The position numbers and the translations under genes are program-made. DNA of 64,000 nt from Acholeplasma sp. Lineage in GTDB: Bacteria; Bacillota_I; Bacilli_A; ML615J-28; CAG-698. How positions within the stretch are numbered: the stretch's first letter is position 1; every line of letters starts with the position of its first letter. The notes under the pieces were generated by a model. The model did not search any database. It was not told the origin of the DNA and was given only the letters and a program-made list of their open reading frames with translations. This document shows positions 2,424 through 20,443 of the stretch, piece by piece. Where the stretch lies: NCBI GenBank assembly GCA_012838635.1, contig DUOW01000005.1:15555-79554 (forward strand), in the 5' to 3' direction.

Positions 2424-2665
2424 TTTCTCCTCCTTAATATAAAAAGTCCTTAAAAATATCTTTTAAGGACGAATTTTTCGCGGTACCACCTTAATTTGTA
2501 TTAAAAATACACAGCTTAAATAGGATCTAACGCTCCTTATACGGATACTTTTTAAGCATCAACTCCATGGTAGTAACTATTAAAACCTTGGTATTTTTTC
2601 ACCAACCAAATACTCTCTACTTTTACTAGTAATTAATAATCTTGTCCACTTCTTTGTTTATTTAT
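2424..2665 (-). promoter_or_regulatory. T-box riboswitch leader, threonine-specific (ACC specifier)
   Basis: On the minus strand the conserved T-box sequence AATTAAGGTGGTACCGCG (reverse complement of 2476-2493) is followed by the terminator GTCCTTAAAAGATATTTTTAAGGAC+TTTTT (2441-2475), then AGGAGG and the thrS ATG. Stem I carries an AGAGA motif and a loop GAAAAAATACCAAGG holding an ACC codon followed by a purine. Confidence 0.85.
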
Positions 2666-3536: not shown

Positions 3537-4844
3537 TCACCCTAATATCTTTTTAATATCAGCTTCTAATTTAGCTTTTTCTTCTTCCGTTAAATTATCA
3601 AAATATTCTTGTTCTTGCTTTTGCTTTTCTTGATCATGAGCTTCTGTTTCTTGTTCATACTGATCCATCCACTCTGGTCTTACACCTTGTTTTTTACCGG
3701 TATATTTGGCCGTTCCACCTTTAGGTTGTTCCTTTAATTGTTTAGTATGAAGAAGCGCGCTTTTAGTATCTTTAACTCCTTTACGAGCCCATTCATTAGC
3801 TACTTTCTCAAAATAGTTATAGGAAGGCATTGTTCCTTCTTTTTCATTTAAAACATAATAAAGCAAAACATTAACAACTCCTCTAGCTAAACCTAAATCT
3901 GAAGTTAATCTTTCTAAAGTTCTTAGTTCGGTTTTAGATGCTGTAATGCCACTTAAACTTTCTAAAATGTTTTTTGGAGAATTGTTTTCTAAAATATTTA
4001 CAAGTTCAAATAATGTATCATCTTGCTTACTAGAAACAAAAGCATCTGGCTCTTTGGTAACAAACTTTGTTTGAACTTTTTTGTTTTGTTTTTGCGCTTT
4101 TAAAGTGTAAATCTTCTCTGCGCTTTCACCAATCTTAGATAAAGGTAGGTCATTATTTTCAATTACTACATCTTCAATAACTTGTTTCATTTCTTGAACA
4201 TTTAAATCATAAGTATAAGCTACATTGATAATCTTATTTTTTAACTCTTGATCATCAAAAACGGCACTTGGAATGATTGCTTCATCAAACTCCATTTTGA
4301 ATAATAAATAATCAAACTTATCACCTTTTATATTAATATTATCTTTAATCTTATTAAAGAACAACTTTGCAAAAGGATCATCTTCTTCTTTAAAATCTTT
4401 CACATATACTTCATCAAAAGTTTTGCTAATATTTGTATATCCTCTAATTTTATAATTTAAATTCTTAGTAATATTTTCCACTTCTACTGCACCAATTTTC
4501 TCTGTCAAGAACTTAGAAAGTAATCTGTTATCTAGAAAAGACGCAACAGTTAGTGGTTGTTTTAAGTAGAAATAATAGCCTTTTTCTTCATCAAAATAAG
4601 TTTCAACTAAACTTAAAGCATTTAGTTTATTTAAAGCTTCTTGGAAGAAATGGTCATTATTAAAATTCAAACTATCAAGGACTGTCCTAACATCATATGT
4701 TTCCTTATTCTCATATGTCATTAGCAAGTGATATAAAGCAAAACTGTCAATCCCAATCAAAGGTAGATATAGTTTAGTTAAAGCAAAACCAGCTTCTCCT
4801 GATAATTCAAAATTTTTATAAACTCTAAAATTTGTATGTTTCAT
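3537..4844 (-). CDS. replication initiation and membrane attachment protein (B. subtilis DnaB type, DnaB_2/DnaD-like domains)
   Basis: 435 aa with an acidic/Lys-rich C-terminal tail. Immediately precedes dnaI as in Bacillus. Confidence 0.7.
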   Translation of the reverse strand: MKHTNFRVYKNFELSGEAGFALTKLYLPLIGIDSFALYHLLMTYENKETYDVRTVLDSLNFNNDHFFQEALNKLNALSLVETYFDEEKGYYFYLKQPLTVASFLDNRLLSKFLTEKIGAVEVENITKNLNYKIRGYTNISKTFDEVYVKDFKEEDDPFAKLFFNKIKDNINIKGDKFDYLLFKMEFDEAIIPSAVFDDQELKNKIINVAYTYDLNVQEMKQVIEDVVIENNDLPLSKIGESAEKIYTLKAQKQNKKVQTKFVTKEPDAFVSSKQDDTLFELVNILENNSPKNILESLSGITASKTELRTLERLTSDLGLARGVVNVLLYYVLNEKEGTMPSYNYFEKVANEWARKGVKDTKSALLHTKQLKEQPKGGTAKYTGKKQGVRPEWMDQYEQETEAHDQEKQKQEQEYFDNLTEEEKAKLEADIKKILG

Positions 4845-4853
4845 ATCTTACCC

Positions 4854-5216
4854 CTAATAAAGACTAACACCTTTATAGTTTAACTTTTTATCAAAAGTTT
4901 GGTATAGCCTTTCAATAATTTTTTGACCTCTTCCACGAGGGAAAATGAACTTCGTAGTTATGGCAAGATCAATTGCAACTTCGTTAATCTTCGTTTCAAC
5001 TAAAATTACAATTAACGAATACTTACTTGTTTCAAACAAAATTTCATTAAACTTTTTATTGTCTGAAATTAGTTTTCCTCCTTCTTCTTCAATCAAATTA
5101 TAAACTACTTTTCTTACATCATCTAAACGATTACGGTAATATCTAGTTCTTAATGATTGAATGTGATGGTTTTCCTTTGTTTCAAAATTGTTACTAAAGA
5201 ATTTTTTAAAACCCAT
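4854..5216 (-). CDS. hypothetical protein, 120 aa (occupies the position of nrdR but has no zinc ribbon)
   Basis: ORF with 1-nt spacing to coaE and 9 nt to the dnaB-type gene. Contains no CxxC pairs. I recognise no family. Confidence 0.45.
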   Translation of the reverse strand: MGFKKFFSNNFETKENHHIQSLRTRYYRNRLDDVRKVVYNLIEEEGGKLISDNKKFNEILFETSKYSLIVILVETKINEVAIDLAITTKFIFPRGRGQKIIERLYQTFDKKLNYKGVSLY

Positions 5217-14635: not shown

Positions 14636-14803
14636 TAAAAAAGCTCGTGAAAATCTCCACGAGCAAAAACAGATCTATTATAATAGATTCTTCTTTCATC
14701 TAGACTGTTACTATCGGTTTTGGAGTTGCACCAAATCATGATTCTAAACGAACCTCGCAGACTTTACTGCCGGTCGGGAATTACACCCTGCCCTGAAGAT
14801 TTA
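14636..14803 (-). promoter_or_regulatory. FMN riboswitch (RFN element) with intrinsic terminator
   Basis: Minus strand reads CTTCAGGGCAGGGTGTAATTCCCGACCGGCAGTAAAGTCTGCGAGG ... ACAGTCTAGATGAAAGAAG, matching the conserved RFN core. Followed by the hairpin GCTCGTGGAGATTTTCACGAGC and TTTTTT (14636-14666). Confidence 0.9.
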
Positions 14804-14815
14804 TTAAGATAGTCT

Positions 14816-14843
14816 ATTATATCCTATTTATTGTTATTTGTCA
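14816..14843 (-). promoter_or_regulatory. consensus sigma-A promoter for the FMN riboswitch-ribU transcript
   Basis: Reverse complement reads TTGACA (14838-14843), a 17-nt spacer, then TATAAT (14816-14821). Overlaps the 3' end of the ABC permease gene. Confidence 0.7.
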
Positions 14844-16066
14844 AATATAATTCTTTCACTTCTAAATGCTCTAACTAGTAACATAACAATGATACCAATA
14901 AAAACAATTGATGAACCGACAGTTGCAAGAACACCACCAACTGTCAATTTAAATGAAATTAAATCTGATAATAAAACATTTAAATTAAAGATAGGAACAA
15001 AATATTTTCCAAAGCCTAAGCCTAAATCAGTTGTTGATGAGGCAACTCCTAGCATAATACAAACGATATACAAAGGCATTGCATAACCTGAAGCTTGTTG
15101 TGGATTCTTTCCTAATGTAGAACAAATTAAAACTAAAATTGAAACAGTGAAAGCTATAACAATTAGAATTAATAATAACATCATATAGTCACCAAAACCA
15201 TATCCAAGTTCTGCTGTTAAATCAATACCAAACATATTTTCTCCACCTACAAGCGTACTTGCTAACATTCCTATAAATGAAGATGCAGCTACAAGTAAAG
15301 ATAAGATACTTGTTGATAACGTTTTACCTATAATAATTTGCTCTCTACGAACTGGCATCATTAATAATGATGCTAATGTTCCTCTTTCTTTTTCACCAGC
15401 AATCGCATCAACACCAATACCTAATGTACCAGAGAAGATAATAATCATTAACATCATTGGTAACATCATCGCTAATACCATTATATTTTGACTAACTTCA
15501 TCTAAAATACTTTCCATTTGGTAAGTAAAGATTTCAGTTGTTTTACCTACACTACCTAACTCTTGATTAACTAAAAAGTTTTTATAAGCAGCGATGAAAT
15601 AATATAAAGATTGAGCTGTTGGAGTTAAAAACTCATTTTGATTATTATATAGTATCTTAACATTTGGTAAATCTTCTGGTGCTGTTTCATTAGTAACAGC
15701 TGTTGCTTTTTCATAAAAACCTTGATCAAAAACAATCATAATATAGTGTTCATCTTCTTTCATTTTTGCTTCTAATTCAGGTCTTGTATATTCATAATCA
15801 GAATAAACAAATTTAACTGTAGAATCTAAGACTTTATTTTGTGATCCCGAAACTTGAAATTCTTCAAATCCTGCTGGAGCATCATAAACATAAACAATCT
15901 TCTCTTTTTCTTGTTCTTTATCAATTTGTCTATTAATAATTACCGAAATTGTTGTATACACTAAAAAGAAAATTAACCCTGGAAGTAAGATCGTAGTAAA
16001 TAAAGTTCCCGGAAACTTAAGAACTTTGTCTAAATCTTTTTTAGCTATTGCCCAAGTTTTTTTCAT
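14834..16066 (-). CDS. ABC-2 family transporter permease
   Basis: 410 aa. An N-terminal TM, a large extracytoplasmic domain, then a 5-6 TM bundle. Overlaps the ATPase gene by 4 nt. Confidence 0.7.
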   Translation of the reverse strand: MKKTWAIAKKDLDKVLKFPGTLFTTILLPGLIFFLVYTTISVIINRQIDKEQEKEKIVYVYDAPAGFEEFQVSGSQNKVLDSTVKFVYSDYEYTRPELEAKMKEDEHYIMIVFDQGFYEKATAVTNETAPEDLPNVKILYNNQNEFLTPTAQSLYYFIAAYKNFLVNQELGSVGKTTEIFTYQMESILDEVSQNIMVLAMMLPMMLMIIIFSGTLGIGVDAIAGEKERGTLASLLMMPVRREQIIIGKTLSTSILSLLVAASSFIGMLASTLVGGENMFGIDLTAELGYGFGDYMMLLLILIVIAFTVSILVLICSTLGKNPQQASGYAMPLYIVCIMLGVASSTTDLGLGFGKYFVPIFNLNVLLSDLISFKLTVGGVLATVGSSIVFIGIIVMLLVRAFRSERIIFDK

Positions 16067-16839
16067 TTTGTTCCTTCCTCCTTATATAATCTAATAAATA
16101 CGTCTTCAAGATCACGTGAAGGAACAGAGTTCATAACATTCTCTACCGTATCGCAAACAACAAGTTTTCCATTAAATATTAACCCTACACGATCACATAA
16201 TTTTTCTACAAGACTCATAATATGAGTACTGATAATTATTGATTTACCTTGCTCTTTTAGTTCTAATAAATAGTCAGTAACAATTTTAGCTGTGTAAACA
16301 TCTAACCCATTAGTAGGTTCATCAAAAACAATAATTTCTGGTTGATGAACTAAGCTAATCGCAACCGAAACTTTTTGTTTCATACCCGTAGATAAATCAC
16401 CAATTTTAGTATCACTAAATTCTCCAATTTCAAAACGAGTAAATAAGTCTTCTTTTCTAGCTGCTGCTACATCTTTTGGTACATCATGTAAGTTAGAATA
16501 ATAATCAAACAAATAGTTTGGAGTAAACTTATCTTCTAGCTTTAATTCGCTTGTTAGAAAAGCCAACTTTTTCTTAATTTTAATTTCTTCAGAAATATCA
16601 ATTCCTTTAATTGTAATTTTACCAGAATCTGGTTTAATTAAAGTTGAAATACAACGAAGAGCTGTTGTCTTTCCGGCTCCGTTAGGACCAACAAGACCAA
16701 AGATTTCCCCTTCATAAGTTGTAAAACTTATGTCGTTTACTGCTATTTTTTTCTTGTCTTTTGTTTTTAAAGTTTTCATTTGTTTCGCAGAAAGCTTAAA
16801 CGATTTAACGAGATTCTCAACAACAATTACTTCTTTCAT
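16063..16839 (-). CDS. ABC transporter ATP-binding protein
   Basis: Walker A GPNGAGKTT, signature LSTGMKQK and a Walker B IIVFDEPT. The ATG at 16839 overlaps the miaB TGA as ATGA, and AAGGAGA lies upstream. Confidence 0.85.
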   Translation of the reverse strand: MKEVIVVENLVKSFKLSAKQMKTLKTKDKKKIAVNDISFTTYEGEIFGLVGPNGAGKTTALRCISTLIKPDSGKITIKGIDISEEIKIKKKLAFLTSELKLEDKFTPNYLFDYYSNLHDVPKDVAAARKEDLFTRFEIGEFSDTKIGDLSTGMKQKVSVAISLVHQPEIIVFDEPTNGLDVYTAKIVTDYLLELKEQGKSIIISTHIMSLVEKLCDRVGLIFNGKLVVCDTVENVMNSVPSRDLEDVFIRLYKEEGTK

Positions 16840-18266
16840 TCTTTTAATTCTCCTTTCAAATGCCAAGTGTATGCTTTTGTTATCTTAACTTCCACAATCT
16901 TTCCTATTAAAGATTCATCTCCATTAAAATTAACTAATTTATTATGTTCTGTATAACCAGATAATTTATCTTCATCTTTATCACTAAAGCTGTCAACTAA
17001 TACTTTCACAACTTTATTTTCAAATCTCTTATTTCCTTTTAAGAACCCTTTATTAATTTCTTCATTTAATTTGTAAAGTCTTTCTTTTGCCTCTTCTTCC
17101 AAAATATTACTTTCATATTTAAAAGCTGGAGTTCCTTCTCTTTTGGAAAAGATAAAAGTATATGCCCCTTCAAAATCAGCTTCTTTTACTAAAGATAAAG
17201 TCTCCAAATAATCTTCTTCTGTTTCACTTGGAAAGGCAACGATAATATCAGTAGTTAAAGAGATACCAGGAACATGCTCTCTTAATTTTGTAACCTTTTC
17301 TAAATAGATTTCCCTAGTATACTTACGATTCATCTTCTTTAAAACAGCATTACTTCCAGACTGAACAGGTAAATGTAAGTGAGGCATAATGTTATCATAT
17401 TTACCCATAACTTCAATTGTTCTTAAATCTAAATCACGAGGATGAGATGTTGTAAATCTAATTCTTGGAATCTTTGTTTGCGCAATCGCTTCAAGTAAAT
17501 CTCCAAAACCAAAATCACCATCATGATAAGCATTTACGTTTTGTCCTAGTAAAGTAACTTCCTTATATCCTGCTTTTACTAAAGCATTTATCTCATTTAA
17601 GATATCTTCTTTTCTTCTTGATCTTTCTTTTCCCCTTGTATAAGGAACGATACAATATGTACAAAACTCATCACAGCCATACATAATATCAACCCAAGCT
17701 TTAATTTTATGATCTCTTACCTTAGGCATTCCCTCAACAACATCACCTTCAACCGAAAAAACTTCAAGAACTTTTTCTTTGTTTTTGAAGATTCTCTTTA
17801 GATATTGTGGCAAATGATTGATATTGTGTGTTCCAAAAATTAAATCAATTTCTGGATGTTTTGCTTTTAAAGTATTGATTGTTGCTTCTTCTTGCGGCAT
17901 GCAGCCACACATCCCAATTATTAAATTATGATTTGTTTTCTTTAAACTTTTAATTCTTCCAATTTCCCCAAAAGCACGATCTTCTGCTGTTTTTCTCACA
18001 GCACAAGTGTTTAATAAAATTAAGTCTGCTTCTTTTTCTTCCTCTGTTTCTGTAAAATCTAAAGCATTTAAAATCCCTCTGATTTTTTCACTATCTGATA
18101 AATTTGCTTGACAACCAAAAGTTTTAAGTAAATAGGTTTTCCCCCTCCCAATACCTAATTCTTCAACAGCAAATTCGAATTTAGAATATTCAGTTTCATC
18201 TTTAGTTCTTTTACGAGCACAGTTTAGAGATGGTTCAATATAGTTTTTCTCTAGACGATTTTTCAT
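16836..18266 (-). CDS. miaB: tRNA-i6A37 methylthiotransferase (radical SAM, MiaB-type)
   Basis: TFGCQAN in the MTTase N-domain, a radical SAM CxxxCxxC (CDEFCTYC) and a C-terminal TRAM domain. The N-terminal extension resembles B. subtilis MiaB (YIEPSL..ARKR..E.EY). Stop codon is TGA. Confidence 0.75.
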   Translation of the reverse strand: MKNRLEKNYIEPSLNCARKRTKDETEYSKFEFAVEELGIGRGKTYLLKTFGCQANLSDSEKIRGILNALDFTETEEEKEADLILLNTCAVRKTAEDRAFGEIGRIKSLKKTNHNLIIGMCGCMPQEEATINTLKAKHPEIDLIFGTHNINHLPQYLKRIFKNKEKVLEVFSVEGDVVEGMPKVRDHKIKAWVDIMYGCDEFCTYCIVPYTRGKERSRRKEDILNEINALVKAGYKEVTLLGQNVNAYHDGDFGFGDLLEAIAQTKIPRIRFTTSHPRDLDLRTIEVMGKYDNIMPHLHLPVQSGSNAVLKKMNRKYTREIYLEKVTKLREHVPGISLTTDIIVAFPSETEEDYLETLSLVKEADFEGAYTFIFSKREGTPAFKYESNILEEEAKERLYKLNEEINKGFLKGNKRFENKVVKVLVDSFSDKDEDKLSGYTEHNKLVNFNGDESLIGKIVEVKITKAYTWHLKGELKE

Positions 18267-18272
18267 ATCTAG

Positions 18273-18305
18273 ATTATATCATAAAGGATATAACTTAACA
18301 AGACA
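18273..18305 (-). promoter_or_regulatory. promoter with extended -10 (TGATATAAT) ending about 6 nt before the miaB ATG (leaderless-type)
   Basis: Reverse complement reads TTGTCT..TATGATATAAT-ctagat-ATG. No SD sequence. An in-frame stop lies 15 nt upstream of the ATG. Confidence 0.5.
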
Positions 18306-18340
18306 AATAATGTAAAAGTTTTGTATGTTTTTTCATCAAA

Positions 18341-18368
18341 ACAATAAAAAATAAGAGGCAAGCCTCTT
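18341..18368 (-). terminator. rho-independent terminator of the antiporter-PII operon
   Basis: AAGAGGCAAGCCTCTT hairpin with a U-tract on the minus strand. Confidence 0.7.
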
Positions 18369-18415
18369 ATTTTATTTTCAAATATTTTCTTTAATCACCT
18401 ATTTAAAAGGTAGGT

Positions 18416-18775
18416 CTATTTTGGTTTTTTAGGTGATAAAGGATAAATTCCTGAAACCGGAACAGTAAACATAAAACCTACAGTTTTTTGTCTCGATCTT
18501 TCAACGATCTTTTTTACTGAAGTAACTACTTTTTCTAAAGTTTCTTCATCCGGTATAACTGTAAAAATAGTTTTAGAATTTTGTTGGATATCTTTTGTTT
18601 CAACTTTAAATAATCCACCACTTAAAAGACCGCCAAGTCCATCTCTTTTAAGAATAGCTGCTGCCATTCCTTCTGAGTCGATAATTGTCGCTCCTCTAAC
18701 TTTTAATGTTACAAACTCTTCTAAAATTTCATCTAGATACACTAAATCGTTTAATACAATAAATAATACGTTCAT
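18416..18775 (-). CDS. small PII-like (GlnB-superfamily fold) protein of unknown function, cotranscribed with the antiporter
   Basis: 119 aa with a beta-alpha-beta-beta-alpha-beta pattern (MNVLFIVL / LVYLDEILEEF / RGATIIDSEGM...). AGGAG RBS. 11-nt gap to the upstream antiporter gene. The fold assignment is from sequence pattern only. Confidence 0.4.
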   Translation of the reverse strand: MNVLFIVLNDLVYLDEILEEFVTLKVRGATIIDSEGMAAAILKRDGLGGLLSGGLFKVETKDIQQNSKTIFTVIPDEETLEKVVTSVKKIVERSRQKTVGFMFTVPVSGIYPLSPKKPK

Positions 18776-18786
18776 AATTTATTCTC

Positions 18787-20148
18787 CTATTCTTGTGGAA
18801 CCAAGTCTTCCACACTTGATAATTCTTGTAATTTATCAAGACCACCAATTTCTCCTGCCTTAGATATTGCAATCTTCGCAAAGATAGGTCCTGTCGTTTC
18901 ATATACTAAAATGCTTAACATAATGATTGTGGAAATAATTGAATACATTGTTGGTAAAGTCTTACCTACAATTACTAACAAGCCAATAGAAATTCCACCT
19001 TGTGGCAATAACCCCAACCATAACCACTTACGAACATTAGGGTCGCTTTTAGCAATTCTTGCCCCTACATATGTACCAACATATTTACCTACACCTCTAC
19101 CTACAATGTACACTAATGCTATAATAGCAATCATCCATTCTACTCTTAAAATTCCTAAATCTAAACTAGCACCAGCCATTGTAAAGAATATAATATAGAA
19201 TGGTGTTGTAAAGTCATTAACTGCTGAAAATGTACGATCTGGTCTTCGAGCAAGATTAGCAATCATTGCTCCAGTAACAATACTAGATAATAGCGATGAA
19301 AGACTAATCCCATATTGCCCTAATAGTTTTTCATGATTTAATAAGTTAAATAACCCTACAGTAAGGATAATTGCGGCTACAGCTAAAATTTGAATATTAT
19401 CTCTTTCACAATCAAACTTCCTTGCTGCTAAAGATAATACTAGTCCAATTAGAGCACCTATCATCATTGAACCAAATACTTCAATAAATGGTTTAGTAAT
19501 CATCAGCCATAATGGCATTTCAACTCCTGGTGATGGTACTAAAATTTGGGCAATAGAAATAAAGAAACCAAAAACAATAATGCCAAAGATATCATCTAAA
19601 GCCGTAATAGGTAAAATTGCTTTTGTAACTGGTCCATAAACACGATATTGTCTAATAACCATTAAAGTTGCAGCTGGCGCCGTTGTCGCTGACATACTTG
19701 CAAGAATCAAAGCCATCGAAATATTCGGCTTAGCAAAAGGCTCATAAGTTAAGATTCCATGTGCCTCATTAAAACTTTGCGGTTTTGGTACAACAAGCAT
19801 TAATACAAACACAAATAATACTGCCCCCAATACCTCAAAAAAAGTAAGGATTGTAATTTCCTTCCCTTGCTTTTTAATATTGGCAATATTAAACTCACTC
19901 CCAATACTAAAAGCAATAAATGCTAAAGCCATCTCACTAATAAACCTTAAAGTGTCTTGATCATCAGCATTAATTATTCCTTTAAAACCAGGAATGATTA
20001 ATCCTAACGATGGCCCTAGTAATACACCAAAGATTAAATAACCAGAAACATTTGGTAATTTTAAAGCTTTGGCCACTTGTCCACCAATAAAGCCAACAAT
20101 TAAAACAATTGCGACTTTAACTAAAACGTTAAATAATACGTCATTCAT
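18787..20148 (-). CDS. cation:proton antiporter (CPA1/CPA2 family, Na+/K+:H+ exchanger) lacking any RCK/KTN domain
   Basis: 453 aa, about 12 TM, with an N-terminus typical of Kef/NhaP-type exchangers. GGAGGG RBS. Directly downstream of a c-di-AMP riboswitch. Confidence 0.8.
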   Translation of the reverse strand: MNDVLFNVLVKVAIVLIVGFIGGQVAKALKLPNVSGYLIFGVLLGPSLGLIIPGFKGIINADDQDTLRFISEMALAFIAFSIGSEFNIANIKKQGKEITILTFFEVLGAVLFVFVLMLVVPKPQSFNEAHGILTYEPFAKPNISMALILASMSATTAPAATLMVIRQYRVYGPVTKAILPITALDDIFGIIVFGFFISIAQILVPSPGVEMPLWLMITKPFIEVFGSMMIGALIGLVLSLAARKFDCERDNIQILAVAAIILTVGLFNLLNHEKLLGQYGISLSSLLSSIVTGAMIANLARRPDRTFSAVNDFTTPFYIIFFTMAGASLDLGILRVEWMIAIIALVYIVGRGVGKYVGTYVGARIAKSDPNVRKWLWLGLLPQGGISIGLLVIVGKTLPTMYSIISTIIMLSILVYETTGPIFAKIAISKAGEIGGLDKLQELSSVEDLVPQE

Positions 20149-20171
20149 TTGTCTTTCCCTCCGTTTAAACT

Positions 20172-20322
20172 AATAAAAAAACGCATAACTAAAGTTATAC
20201 GCTTAATCACTCCTATGAGGTTAGCTGACGGGTTCAGGCAATTAAGTTGCCTTACGCTTTAATTAAGCGATTCGCCCCAAGACTTTGGTCCCCCACCCGA
20301 ATGATTCGGAGTTCATTATCAC
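20172..20322 (-). promoter_or_regulatory. cyclic-di-AMP riboswitch (ydaO/kimA class) with intrinsic terminator
   Basis: Minus strand reads GAACTCCGAATCATTCGGGTGGGGGACCAAAGTCTTGGGGCGAATCGC ... CCTGAACCCGTCAGCTAACCTCATAGGAGTG. This matches the ydaO conserved blocks (GGGGACC.., GGGG.GAATCGC, CCCGTCAGCTAACCTC.TA.G). Followed by the terminator GCGTATAACTTTAGTTATGCG + TTTTTTT (20174-20203). Confidence 0.85.
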
Positions 20323-20443
20323 TCTACCAAATTTTTCCTATTTTGTCAAGTACAGCCTAACAACTTAACTTGTTTTAATTTACAGTTATTTATATTGTAT
20401 ATTATAAAAGCTTGTGCTAAAATATTGTTGTTAGAGGTGAAGT

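Follow-up and report, generated by a model that had tools for sequence, protein, structure and literature searches.

Bacterial cation/proton antiporters are known to be regulated by RCK/KTN domains, by the flavodoxin-like proteins KefF/G, by pH sensing and by two-component systems. We know of no PII-type subunit among these regulators, and none was found in the literature searched. The antiporter CpaA is an exporter for which activation by c-di-AMP has been reported (PMC6488665), and PstA/DarA and SbtB are PII-like proteins established as c-di-AMP receptors (PMC4316997, PMC8654305). A sequence-only reading of the 64,000-nucleotide stretch of Acholeplasma sp. DNA analysed here (hereafter the window) had proposed a two-tier, c-di-AMP-gated K+ export module, in which a riboswitch precedes an antiporter gene and a gene for a PII-like protein, and had held the pairing of a PII-like protein with a CPA antiporter to be undescribed. 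We likewise found no description of such a pairing, or of a c-di-AMP riboswitch associated with an antiporter plus PII-like gene, in the literature searched.

The locus is a single self-contained unit running from promoter through c-di-AMP riboswitch, antiporter gene and PII-like gene to terminator, with the following features in window coordinates:

20321–20349, minus strand: promoter-like site TTGACA, 17-nt spacer, TAGAGT with a TG extension (predicted from consensus match)
20195–20321, minus strand: c-di-AMP riboswitch aptamer, ydaO class (RF00379; Rfam)
20169–20204, minus strand: intrinsic terminator forming the expression platform, with an 11-bp stem (AAGCGTATAAC/GTTATGCGTTT), a 4-nt loop and a T-run (sequence)
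20157–20162, minus strand: ribosome-binding site GGAGGG of the antiporter gene, 8 nt before the ATG at 20148 (sequence)
18787–20148, minus strand: 453-aa cation/proton antiporter (PF00999, AlphaFold2, Foldseek)
18784–18788, minus strand: ribosome-binding site AGGAG of the small gene, overlapping the antiporter stop codon (sequence)
18416–18775, minus strand: 119-aa PII-like protein of a divergent, unnamed subfamily, a candidate regulatory subunit of the antiporter
18338–18373, minus strand: terminator-like hairpin closing the two-gene operon, an 11-bp stem (hairpin 18373–18348) followed by a T-run

The promoter-like site (20349–20321) lies directly 5′ of the aptamer and, with 10 of 12 consensus matches, is the best in the region. 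The small ORF starts 11 nt after the antiporter stop codon behind its own AGGAG, just as claimed earlier and as can be read from the sequence. A miaB-like gene downstream has a promoter-like site of its own at 18301–18273.

PF00999 (Na_H_Exchanger) covers residues 15–418 of the 453-aa protein (E 3e-32), and the Pfam scan found no other domain in it, in agreement with its earlier description as a CPA-family antiporter devoid of RCK/KTN. The same is true more widely: PF00999 is the sole domain in all 120 antiporter homologues listed, and neither these nor the antiporter itself contain an RCK/KTN domain (TrkA_N, TrkA_C), the sensor built into Kef-, CpaA- and KhtTU-type systems. The possibility that nearby genes supply the missing RCK sensor was rejected, as no RCK domain was found in the six neighbouring genes scanned and the genes flanking the antiporter/PII-like pair are not conserved. 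A phmmer search of the PDB with the antiporter gave no match at E ≤ 0.001, so that a fold search was needed. The top Foldseek matches of the AlphaFold2 model (pLDDT 78.5) were NapA, MjNhaP1, PaNhaP, NHA2 and KefC, with an E value of 3e-10 and a query-normalised TM-score of 0.66 for NapA; the model thus describes an NhaA-fold antiporter. Residues D185, D186 and K355 are invariant in 27 orthologues. Together with I181 they occupy positions 5–8 of the CPA motif, as set by spacing rather than by structural alignment, and conform to the electrogenic CPA2 rule of Masrati et al. (2018), which calls for no Glu at position 5, Asp-Asp at positions 6–7 and Lys at position 8 (PMC6181914). The Asp-Asp/Lys motif is linked to electrogenic exchange of two protons per cation. 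Against NCBIfam TIGR00932 (CPA2 subfamily) the protein scored 43 bits, below the cut-off of 238.3; it represents a divergent clade rather than a curated CPA2 equivalog. The TM4 motif leaves ion selectivity ambiguous: of the patterns given by Masrati et al. (PMC6181914), both the K+-type L-S-S-T and the Na+-type A-T-x-nonpolar can be aligned to the stretch M152-S-A-T-T-A-P158.

In 78 of 78 informative genome loci the gene immediately preceding the small gene is an antiporter orthologue, in most cases 1–34 nt away. Relatives of the small protein at 30–35% identity also adjoin PF00999 antiporters, in either order, so the recurrence of small-ORF homologues beside CPA genes that had been anticipated holds for orthologues and relatives alike. 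When metagenomes were scanned with a subset of the diverse family alignment, a PF00999-type gene was adjacent, again in either order, in 66 of the 80 loci holding relatives. In about 8 loci, genes of a subfamily with 35% identity to the window protein stand first in Mrp antiporter operons, together with a PTS_EIIA_2 (PTS-EIIA) gene. Because the family adjoins antiporter genes in many bacteria, the small protein is probably an undescribed antiporter regulator. Chimeric ORFs joining antiporter and PII-like segments exist. Three further sequences were set aside: in P0152 (422 aa), PrmC methyltransferase domains precede a PII-like domain, an arrangement better explained by read-through in gene calling than by a real fusion, and the hits in P0217 and P0218, both very long proteins, are chance matches of a repeat-rich kind. 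The family comprises 529 clusters at 50% identity and spans Acholeplasmatales, human-gut Oscillospiraceae, Tissierellaceae and Aerophobetes, where its members are named “hypothetical protein” or “P-II nitrogen regulator” and, in one cluster, “predicted transcriptional regulator”. Gene adjacency does not prove physical contact between the small protein and the antiporter.

As judged from its AlphaFold2 model, the small protein has a PII fold. The monomer (pLDDT 80) is predicted as β-α-β, a long loop (residues 35–66) and β-α-β, a double β-α-β ferredoxin-like fold with the T-loop between β2 and β3; the T-loop region itself is of low confidence (pLDDT 43–52). The model matches PII proteins in fold searches, as the sequence-only reading had supposed. 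Canonical PII ranked above CutA in both of these searches, and neither a CutA-type nor an ACT-type fold was retained as the best description. The 119-aa protein scored 23.2 bits against PF00543 (P-II), below the gathering score of 25, and 50 of 60 distant relatives match PF00543 at E ≤ 0.01, the scores shown reaching about 33 bits; by sequence the family is a borderline, divergent branch of Pfam P-II. A profile of the distant members aligns full-length to PII chains in the PDB (E 4e-5). Neither the single 119-aa sequence nor the close-family profile (A1) gave a significant match to PDB chains; comparing A1 with E. coli GlnB at the profile level gave a weak, fold-consistent alignment, which was taken only as support.

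The family departs from canonical PII at the residues that contact ligands. Neither PROSITE PII signature, Y-[KR]-G-[AS]-[AE]-Y for the T-loop or [ST]-x3-G-[DY]-G-[KR]-[IV]-[FW]-[LIVM] for the B-loop, is matched by any family member in sets of 42 and 60, while the E. coli GlnB control matches both. Among the ATP contacts, K90 is replaced by I/V/F, R101 by Gly, and R103 is variable. With K90 and R101 replaced and both signatures absent, canonical binding of Mg-ATP and 2-oxoglutarate is unlikely. The Gly/Thr positions of the nucleotide cleft are kept (G27, T29, G35 and G89, E. coli numbering). At the position equivalent to R38, 42 of 60 distant members carry a basic residue, and the window protein’s own subfamily has A, S, K or R. 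G46, G54 and F56 are partly conserved in the long β2–β3 insertion at the position of the PII T-loop. Overall, conservation is concentrated in the base of the T-loop, the T-loop itself, the B-loop and the C-terminus, where PII proteins bind their ligands and targets.

Loss of the phosphate-binding residues would suit a protein that serves the stability or function of the antiporter free of ligand control, either as a structural or assembly subunit or as a cation-binding, CutA-like tolerance protein. CutA proteins are not known to have the long loop at the T-loop position, however, whereas here a long, partly conserved insertion (G46, G54, F56) occupies it. The conserved residues moreover map to the PII ligand cleft and the fold searches favour canonical PII over CutA, and we regard this explanation as highly improbable. 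A different explanation makes use of the cleft: the protein could report energy or carbon/nitrogen state (ADP/ATP ratio, AMP, 2-oxoglutarate), like GlnK, SbtB and PotN, so that an antiporter consuming proton-motive force is switched off at energy shortage. The family’s place as a divergent branch of Pfam P-II, the retained G27, T29, G35 and G89, the basic R38-equivalent in 42 of 60 distant members and the PTS_EIIA_2 protein co-encoded with the Mrp-linked subfamily are all in keeping with such a sensor. The altered K90, R101 and R103, the absence of the PROSITE signatures from 102 of 102 members checked, which makes canonical Mg-ATP/2-oxoglutarate binding unlikely, and the A, S, K or R found at the R38-equivalent in the window subfamily argue against it, and we consider it rather unlikely.

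In an Rfam scan of the whole window, RF00379 was found at 20195–20321 (minus strand) with 87.3 bits (gathering score 38 bits) and E 5e-19, covering positions 1–134 of the 134 in the model. This confirms the ydaO-class aptamer with its own terminator on which the earlier proposal was built. The terminator hairpin, an 11-bp stem at 20204–20179 with a T-run to about 20169, is directly 3′ of the aptamer; it starts about 6 nt past the 3′ strand of P1, does not overlap the paired aptamer core, and co-folds with the aptamer in the minimum-energy structure. The same terminator, beginning 10 nt ahead of the Rfam 3′ end and with varying stems, is kept in about 37 of 52 riboswitch-bearing loci; about 12 of these loci lack one, and control there may be exerted at translation. 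Because the terminator lies outside the paired core of the aptamer, we infer from this anatomy that the riboswitch is a transcriptional OFF switch; constrained and truncated folding gave no convincing antiterminator pairing, and the assignment therefore rests on layout and precedent. OFF switches of the same layout are the kdp riboswitch of B. thuringiensis (PMC6488665), a tandem riboswitch of Dehalobacter (PMC9337991) and a B. subtilis case summarised in PMC5575661. Given this OFF architecture, the operon would be made at low c-di-AMP, like K+ importers. The proposed logic of c-di-AMP-gated K+ export is not supported by this layout: an OFF riboswitch means expression at low c-di-AMP, which is hard to reconcile with an exporter activated by c-di-AMP and is the opposite of CpaA.

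The riboswitch is optional to the antiporter/PII-like gene pair. Of 69 informative orthologous loci, our own covariance model located it in 46, each time at the corresponding position; in the other 23 the gene pair stands without it. It also occurs at at least 6 more distant loci, most distant operons having none, and in the metagenome sample it is absent from 41 of 41 PII-then-antiporter loci and from all Mrp-linked loci. In the riboswitch-free loci L047, L031, L068, L009, L015, L098 and L100, a permissive Rfam scan (E ≤ 0.1) found no RNA family, and the leaders of these loci are short with a plain promoter in front. Of the two-tier design, the riboswitch is thus present in the window but is not a fixed element, about one third of orthologous operons lacking it.

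The wide occurrence of the pair without a riboswitch is consistent with the protein as a sensor of energy or carbon/nitrogen state, for which the c-di-AMP riboswitch would be an independent, lineage-specific transcriptional add-on. It argues against the idea that the PII-like protein is itself a c-di-AMP receptor, by which c-di-AMP would stop synthesis through the RNA and shut existing antiporters through the protein, a double-negative control as in KtrAB and KimA. That idea draws on the membership of the operon in a riboswitch regulon at 46 Acholeplasma-type and at least 6 more distant loci, on the PII-like precedents PstA/DarA and SbtB, and on the loss of the triphosphate contacts K90 and R101, which fits a ligand without a triphosphate. 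Against it stand, besides the 23 orthologous, 41 PII-then-antiporter and all Mrp-linked loci without the riboswitch, the absence of a PF06153 (CdAMP_rec) match in the 119-aa protein at E ≤ 1, the E value of 0.79 for PstA chains 4wk1 and 4d3g against the family profile, and the PTS-EIIA gene of the Mrp-linked subfamily, which points to a metabolic-state input. We judge a c-di-AMP receptor unlikely; its activating version, the c-di-AMP-activated K+ export originally suggested, is the less likely form and is contradicted by the OFF riboswitch.

On balance, we think it probable that the locus encodes an OFF-riboswitch-controlled antiporter with an electrogenic CPA2 motif that is gated by a dedicated PII-like subunit. 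At high c-di-AMP the folded aptamer would let the adjacent terminator form and the operon would be silent; at low c-di-AMP, which in Firmicutes-type bacteria would accompany K+ limitation or osmotic upshift, read-through would occur. Because it would be co-regulated with the other low-c-di-AMP genes of an Acholeplasma-type organism that has no cell wall, the antiporter would most likely extrude Na+, or possibly both Na+ and K+, in return for protons, and could thereby control ion content, pH and cell volume during K+ and osmolyte uptake. As fold and linkage suggest, the 119-aa protein may form PII-type signalling trimers dedicated to this one antiporter and, on the model of GlnK-AmtB, SbtB-SbtA, PII-NrtBCD and PotN, would bind a small effector in the clefts between its subunits. 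Transport would be gated by docking of its unusually long, partly conserved T-loop to the cytoplasmic side of the antiporter, perhaps to the antiporter’s conserved C-terminal tail (residues 425–444). As the triphosphate-contacting residues are lost, an effector other than canonically bound ATP/2-oxoglutarate is likelier, with AMP, ADP, a cyclic nucleotide and c-di-AMP as candidates.

Their constant association with two unrelated kinds of antiporter, CPA and Mrp, gives these proteins a clear, testable function and would widen the list of PII targets. The small protein also adds a candidate to the still incomplete set of c-di-AMP receptors, and an antiporter in the low-c-di-AMP regulon bears on how Na+/H+ exchange is coupled to K+ and osmolyte uptake in wall-less bacteria. 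A bolder generalisation, speculative and in our view rather improbable, is a new PII-type class gating CPA2 and Mrp antiporters that, in riboswitch-bearing lineages, binds c-di-AMP, so that shut-off would operate through both RNA and protein with PII in place of RCK_C.

Among described PII systems, GlnK-AmtB and PII-NrtBCD act on an ammonium channel and a nitrate ABC transporter, whereas the partner here is a cation/proton antiporter, and the Tyr51 motif, GDGK B-loop and K90/R101 contacts of GlnK/PII are all absent from the window family. The T-loop also differs, with about 32 residues in the window protein and about 19 in canonical PII. SbtB-SbtA involves a cyanobacterial bicarbonate transporter, and thus another transporter family and phylum. 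SbtA is a trimer, as PII proteins are. CPA antiporters are dimers, which tells against the gating proposed here, since the matched threefold symmetry of GlnK-AmtB and SbtB-SbtA is unavailable. SbtB further carries a redox C-terminal extension; the window protein has no cysteine and hence no extension of that kind. PotN (PDB 7o4x) is similar in that it, too, is a PII-like protein of a Firmicute whose gene lies within a transporter operon (potABCD), and it is a Foldseek match of the small-protein model (rank 48, E 9e-5). Its match to the family profile is weak (E 0.11), and it differs in being of a type above the Pfam P-II threshold and linked to an ABC polyamine importer. PstA/DarA shares the PII-like fold, the Firmicutes-type host and the c-di-AMP network, but not the sequence family, the window protein lacking PF06153 membership. 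In PstA/DarA the T-loop is short and the B-loop long, and its gene is not known to accompany a transporter gene; the window protein has a long T-loop and its gene is fixed beside an antiporter. CpaA and KhtT-KhtU, which are CPA2 K+/H+ antiporters regulated by c-di-AMP, resemble the locus in that c-di-AMP controls a CPA2-type antiporter and a cytoplasmic regulator, fused or separate, is present. They sense c-di-AMP by RCK_C, whereas the window system has no RCK and a PII-fold partner, and here, by layout and precedent, c-di-AMP would act on the mRNA and repress. The riboswitch regulons of kimA, ktrAB and kdpFABC share both the riboswitch class and the aptamer-then-terminator OFF layout; those genes encode K+ importers, whereas here the same arrangement controls an antiporter and a PII-like protein.

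The operon occupies the minus strand of the window and comprises the following features.

20349-20321, minus strand: promoter-like site TTGACA-17-TAGAGT with a TG extension, the best in the region, directly 5' of the aptamer
20195-20321, minus strand: c-di-AMP riboswitch RF00379, full model (Rfam; 87.3 bits, cut-off 38, E 5e-19)
20204-20169, minus strand: intrinsic terminator, an 11-bp hairpin (AAGCGTATAAC / GTTATGCGTTT) then a T-run, directly continuing the riboswitch sequence
18787-20148, minus strand: antiporter ORF, 453 aa, PF00999 Na_H_Exchanger at residues 15-418
overlapping the antiporter stop codon, minus strand: AGGAG of the 119-aa ORF, read in the sequence
18416-18775, minus strand: 119-aa ORF, starting 11 nt past the antiporter stop codon
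18373-18348, minus strand: second terminator-like hairpin, closing the two-gene unit

The downstream miaB-like gene has a promoter-like site of its own. Every part described in the sequence-only reading was confirmed: the ydaO-class aptamer with its adjoining terminator, an antiporter without an RCK/KTN domain (PF00999 is the sole Pfam match) and the closely spaced small ORF with its own ribosome-binding site. The interpretation placed on these parts, a two-tier c-di-AMP-gated K+/cation export module, is partly supported. The Rfam scan of the whole window gave three matches at the gathering threshold, RF00379, RF00050 and RF00230. The second is an FMN riboswitch (105 bits, 14684-14804, minus strand) directly downstream of ABC-2 transporter genes (14834-16866, minus strand), and the gene it controls is located below 14684; the third is a T-box leader (2462-2663, minus strand) at 97 bits, barely over the cut-off of 93.

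The strongest result is the partnership of the antiporter with the PII-like protein, as we refer to the 119-aa product. With one genome scanned per species, 168 relatives came up and 80 loci were kept, mostly metagenome-assembled genomes of Acholeplasmataceae, Izemoplasmatales and other Bacilli, together with A. laidlawii, A. oculi, A. granularum and Paracholeplasma vituli. In 78 of the 80, the gene immediately upstream, in the same orientation, encodes an ortholog of the window antiporter (50-88% identity), and in the other two the contig stops short of where it would be; the proposed recurrence beside CPA genes is thus borne out. The intergenic gap is mostly 1-34 nt across orthologous loci. 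The remaining neighbours in the window (miaB, kinase-like, GNAT and ymdB) recur in the closest relatives only, all four being present in the two nearest genomes and GNAT in one further; what is conserved as a block is just the two genes. At one locus (L060:1512-4980; coordinates after a colon are positions within that locus) the antiporter ortholog is apparently split, with residues 11-376 at 1542-2615 and residues 362-447 at 4723-4980, separated by ~2.1 kb, which may reflect insertion or duplication; the riboswitch is retained at 1371-1497.

The association extends to distant relatives. Three of four distant members looked up adjoin PF00999 genes, the fourth being on a contig too short to show it. 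A metagenome sample of 80 loci with relatives at ~30-45% identity held 25 in the order antiporter-then-PII and 41 in the order PII-then-antiporter, the latter non-independent as most come from a single Oscillospiraceae lineage of the human gut, in which the two genes overlap by 11 nt. In that reversed pair (L100-L138, human-gut Oscillospiraceae/Ruminococcaceae; e.g. L100:4001-5540) the PII-like gene precedes and overlaps a ~400-aa PF00999-type gene without a riboswitch, and its 90% cluster has 438 members. At L096:4001-6780 the PII-like gene is followed by two tandem PF00999-type genes. Two chimeric ORFs from the profile search, P0159 and P0169, combine an antiporter segment (C-terminal or mid-region) with a partial PII-like domain, and may represent true fusions, deletions or artefacts of assembly. 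Around eight Aerophobetes-type loci (L162:4001-6958; also L153, L155, L156, L158, L163, L164 and L166) encode, PII-like gene first, PTS_EIIA_2, MnhE, MrpF, MnhG and MnhB, an Mrp antiporter operon. Their PII-like protein aligns with the window protein from end to end at 35% identity, and the cluster with this exact sequence takes its name from Candidatus Aerophobetes. In these operons genes for a PII-like and a PtsN-like protein precede the Mrp cation/proton antiporter genes. Three high-GC members (L095:4001-5155, L109:159-1530 and L150) stand before a DUF948 membrane protein gene, with no antiporter there. That the gene is linked to antiporters of two unrelated families speaks for an action of the small protein on antiporters, beyond simply sharing a promoter with one.

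The Pfam P-II score of the 119-aa protein falls slightly below threshold (23.2 bits against 25, E 9e-5). Its AlphaFold2 model (pLDDT 80, 42 homologs) has the order beta-alpha-beta, a 32-residue low-confidence loop (residues 35-66) and beta-alpha-beta. The top Foldseek matches in the PDB were PII proteins only (GlnZ, GlnK, GlnB and TT1020; E from 4e-6, probability 1.0), supporting the predicted PII/GlnB fold. Solved PII chains also align full-length with a profile of 60 distant relatives (2gw8_A, E 4e-5). That alignment shows retention of the glycine/threonine scaffold of the nucleotide cleft (G27, T29, G35 and G89, E. coli numbering), replacement of K90 by I, V or F and of R101 by Gly, and variability at R103. 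Neither PROSITE PII signature was found in any of 102 family members; both matched a GlnB sequence used as positive control. Pfam gave no match to the CdAMP_rec (PstA/DarA) family, and PstA chains matched the family profile only at E 0.8. With the canonical signatures, K90 and R101 gone and the predicted fold kept, the small protein belongs, on model and sequence, to an unnamed and divergent PII-superfamily branch, and its effector is probably something other than Mg-ATP/2-oxoglutarate in the canonical binding mode. An exhaustive profile search with this family gave 529 clusters at 50% identity (E up to 1e-3). Weak matches to family profiles (E 0.001-0.5) include the recent PDB entries 23eo/23eq ('Signaling protein') and 9p1x, whose chains G and H (125 and 105 aa) differ from each other and are both labelled 'P-II family nitrogen regulatory protein'.

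PF00999 was the only domain in 120 of 120 antiporter homologs among those listed, named 'cation:proton antiporter' or 'KefB' at source. The AlphaFold2 model (pLDDT 78.5) matches NapA, MjNhaP1, PaNhaP, NHA2, SOS1 and KefC. Residues D185-D186 and K355 are invariant across 27 orthologs and a non-acidic residue stands four positions ahead of D185, thus reproducing the Asp-Asp/Lys motif tied to electrogenic CPA2 exchangers (Masrati et al., PMC6181914). The TM4 stretch M-S-A-T-T-A-P fits a Kef-like (K+) or a NapA/NhaA-like (Na+) reading alike. The conserved cytoplasmic tail (K425, K430, E433, G436, L437, D438, L440 and S444) is a candidate docking site.

The riboswitch terminator begins ~6 nt past the P1 3' strand, and aptamer and terminator coexist in the minimum-energy fold. 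This layout is that of the OFF-acting B. thuringiensis kdp riboswitch, whose termination in vitro rose from 27% to 63% with c-di-AMP (PMC6488665), the Dehalobacter tandem c-di-AMP switch (PMC9337991) and the B. subtilis kimA/ktrAB riboswitches (PMC5575661). By analogy, the window riboswitch would act OFF; folding revealed no antiterminator, a part that we infer. The operon would then be made at low c-di-AMP, alongside K+ importers, whereas CpaA, a c-di-AMP-responsive exporter, is reported to be activated by c-di-AMP via RCK_C (PMC6488665). A c-di-AMP-gated K+ export module is on this logic internally inconsistent, its sign being wrong. Were the PII-like protein to bind c-di-AMP, inhibition would be the consistent design, as for KtrA and KimA. 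Going by regulon logic and by volume control in mollicutes, the reading we prefer is that the antiporter would move Na+ (or Na+/K+) out against protons while a wall-less cell adapts osmotically or to low K+. Among 52 riboswitch-bearing loci, ~37 have a terminator at an equal offset, with varying stems; ~12 have none and carry a ribosome-binding site within ~30 nt, and so may be controlled at translation.

We scored 69 genome loci with enough upstream DNA using our own covariance model, for which ten copies confirmed by Rfam served as input. The aptamer immediately precedes the antiporter in 46 and is absent in 23, among them the A. laidlawii / oculi / granularum group and a set of 13 metagenome-assembled genomes related to one another. 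Seven representative riboswitch-less loci gave no match in a permissive Rfam scan. Six loci of the Acholeplasma group (L047:3380-3670, L031, L057, L051, L033 and L042) keep the pair, preceded by a plain TTGACT-17-TAAAAT promoter and ~35 nt of leader in which no RNA element is detected. Six distant antiporter-then-PII loci have the riboswitch (L105, L139, L142, L147, L148 and L152), five of them Rfam-confirmed at 74-92 bits; among the distant loci examined it occurs in no PII-then-antiporter and no Mrp-linked locus. In an uncultured Acholeplasmatales genome a c-di-GMP-I riboswitch (RF01051, 64 bits, L021:8003-8077) lies downstream of the PII-like gene at a distance of ~2.6 kb. The c-di-AMP riboswitch is therefore frequent yet optional for the gene pair, a distribution that does not favour c-di-AMP sensing by the small protein, and we consider the two-tier reading unlikely.

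Compared with canonical PII, the small protein differs in sequence but agrees in fold. PstA/DarA is a PII-like c-di-AMP receptor with no transporter gene attached, and the present protein does not match it in sequence. Within the c-di-AMP field, KhtT-KhtU and CpaA are closest, but their sensors are RCK_C and the present system has no RCK domain. We found no description of a PII-like/antiporter pairing in the full-text literature searched, which covers few subscription journals; the architecture and linkage are genuine and, within that coverage, undescribed. We regard the PII-like subfamily and its proposed class of target as new, and the riboswitch above them is already known. Functionally closest are GlnK-AmtB, PII-NrtBCD, SbtB-SbtA and PotN, in which a small PII-type protein is encoded with the transporter it gates, an operon linkage that the antiporter-PII pair shares.
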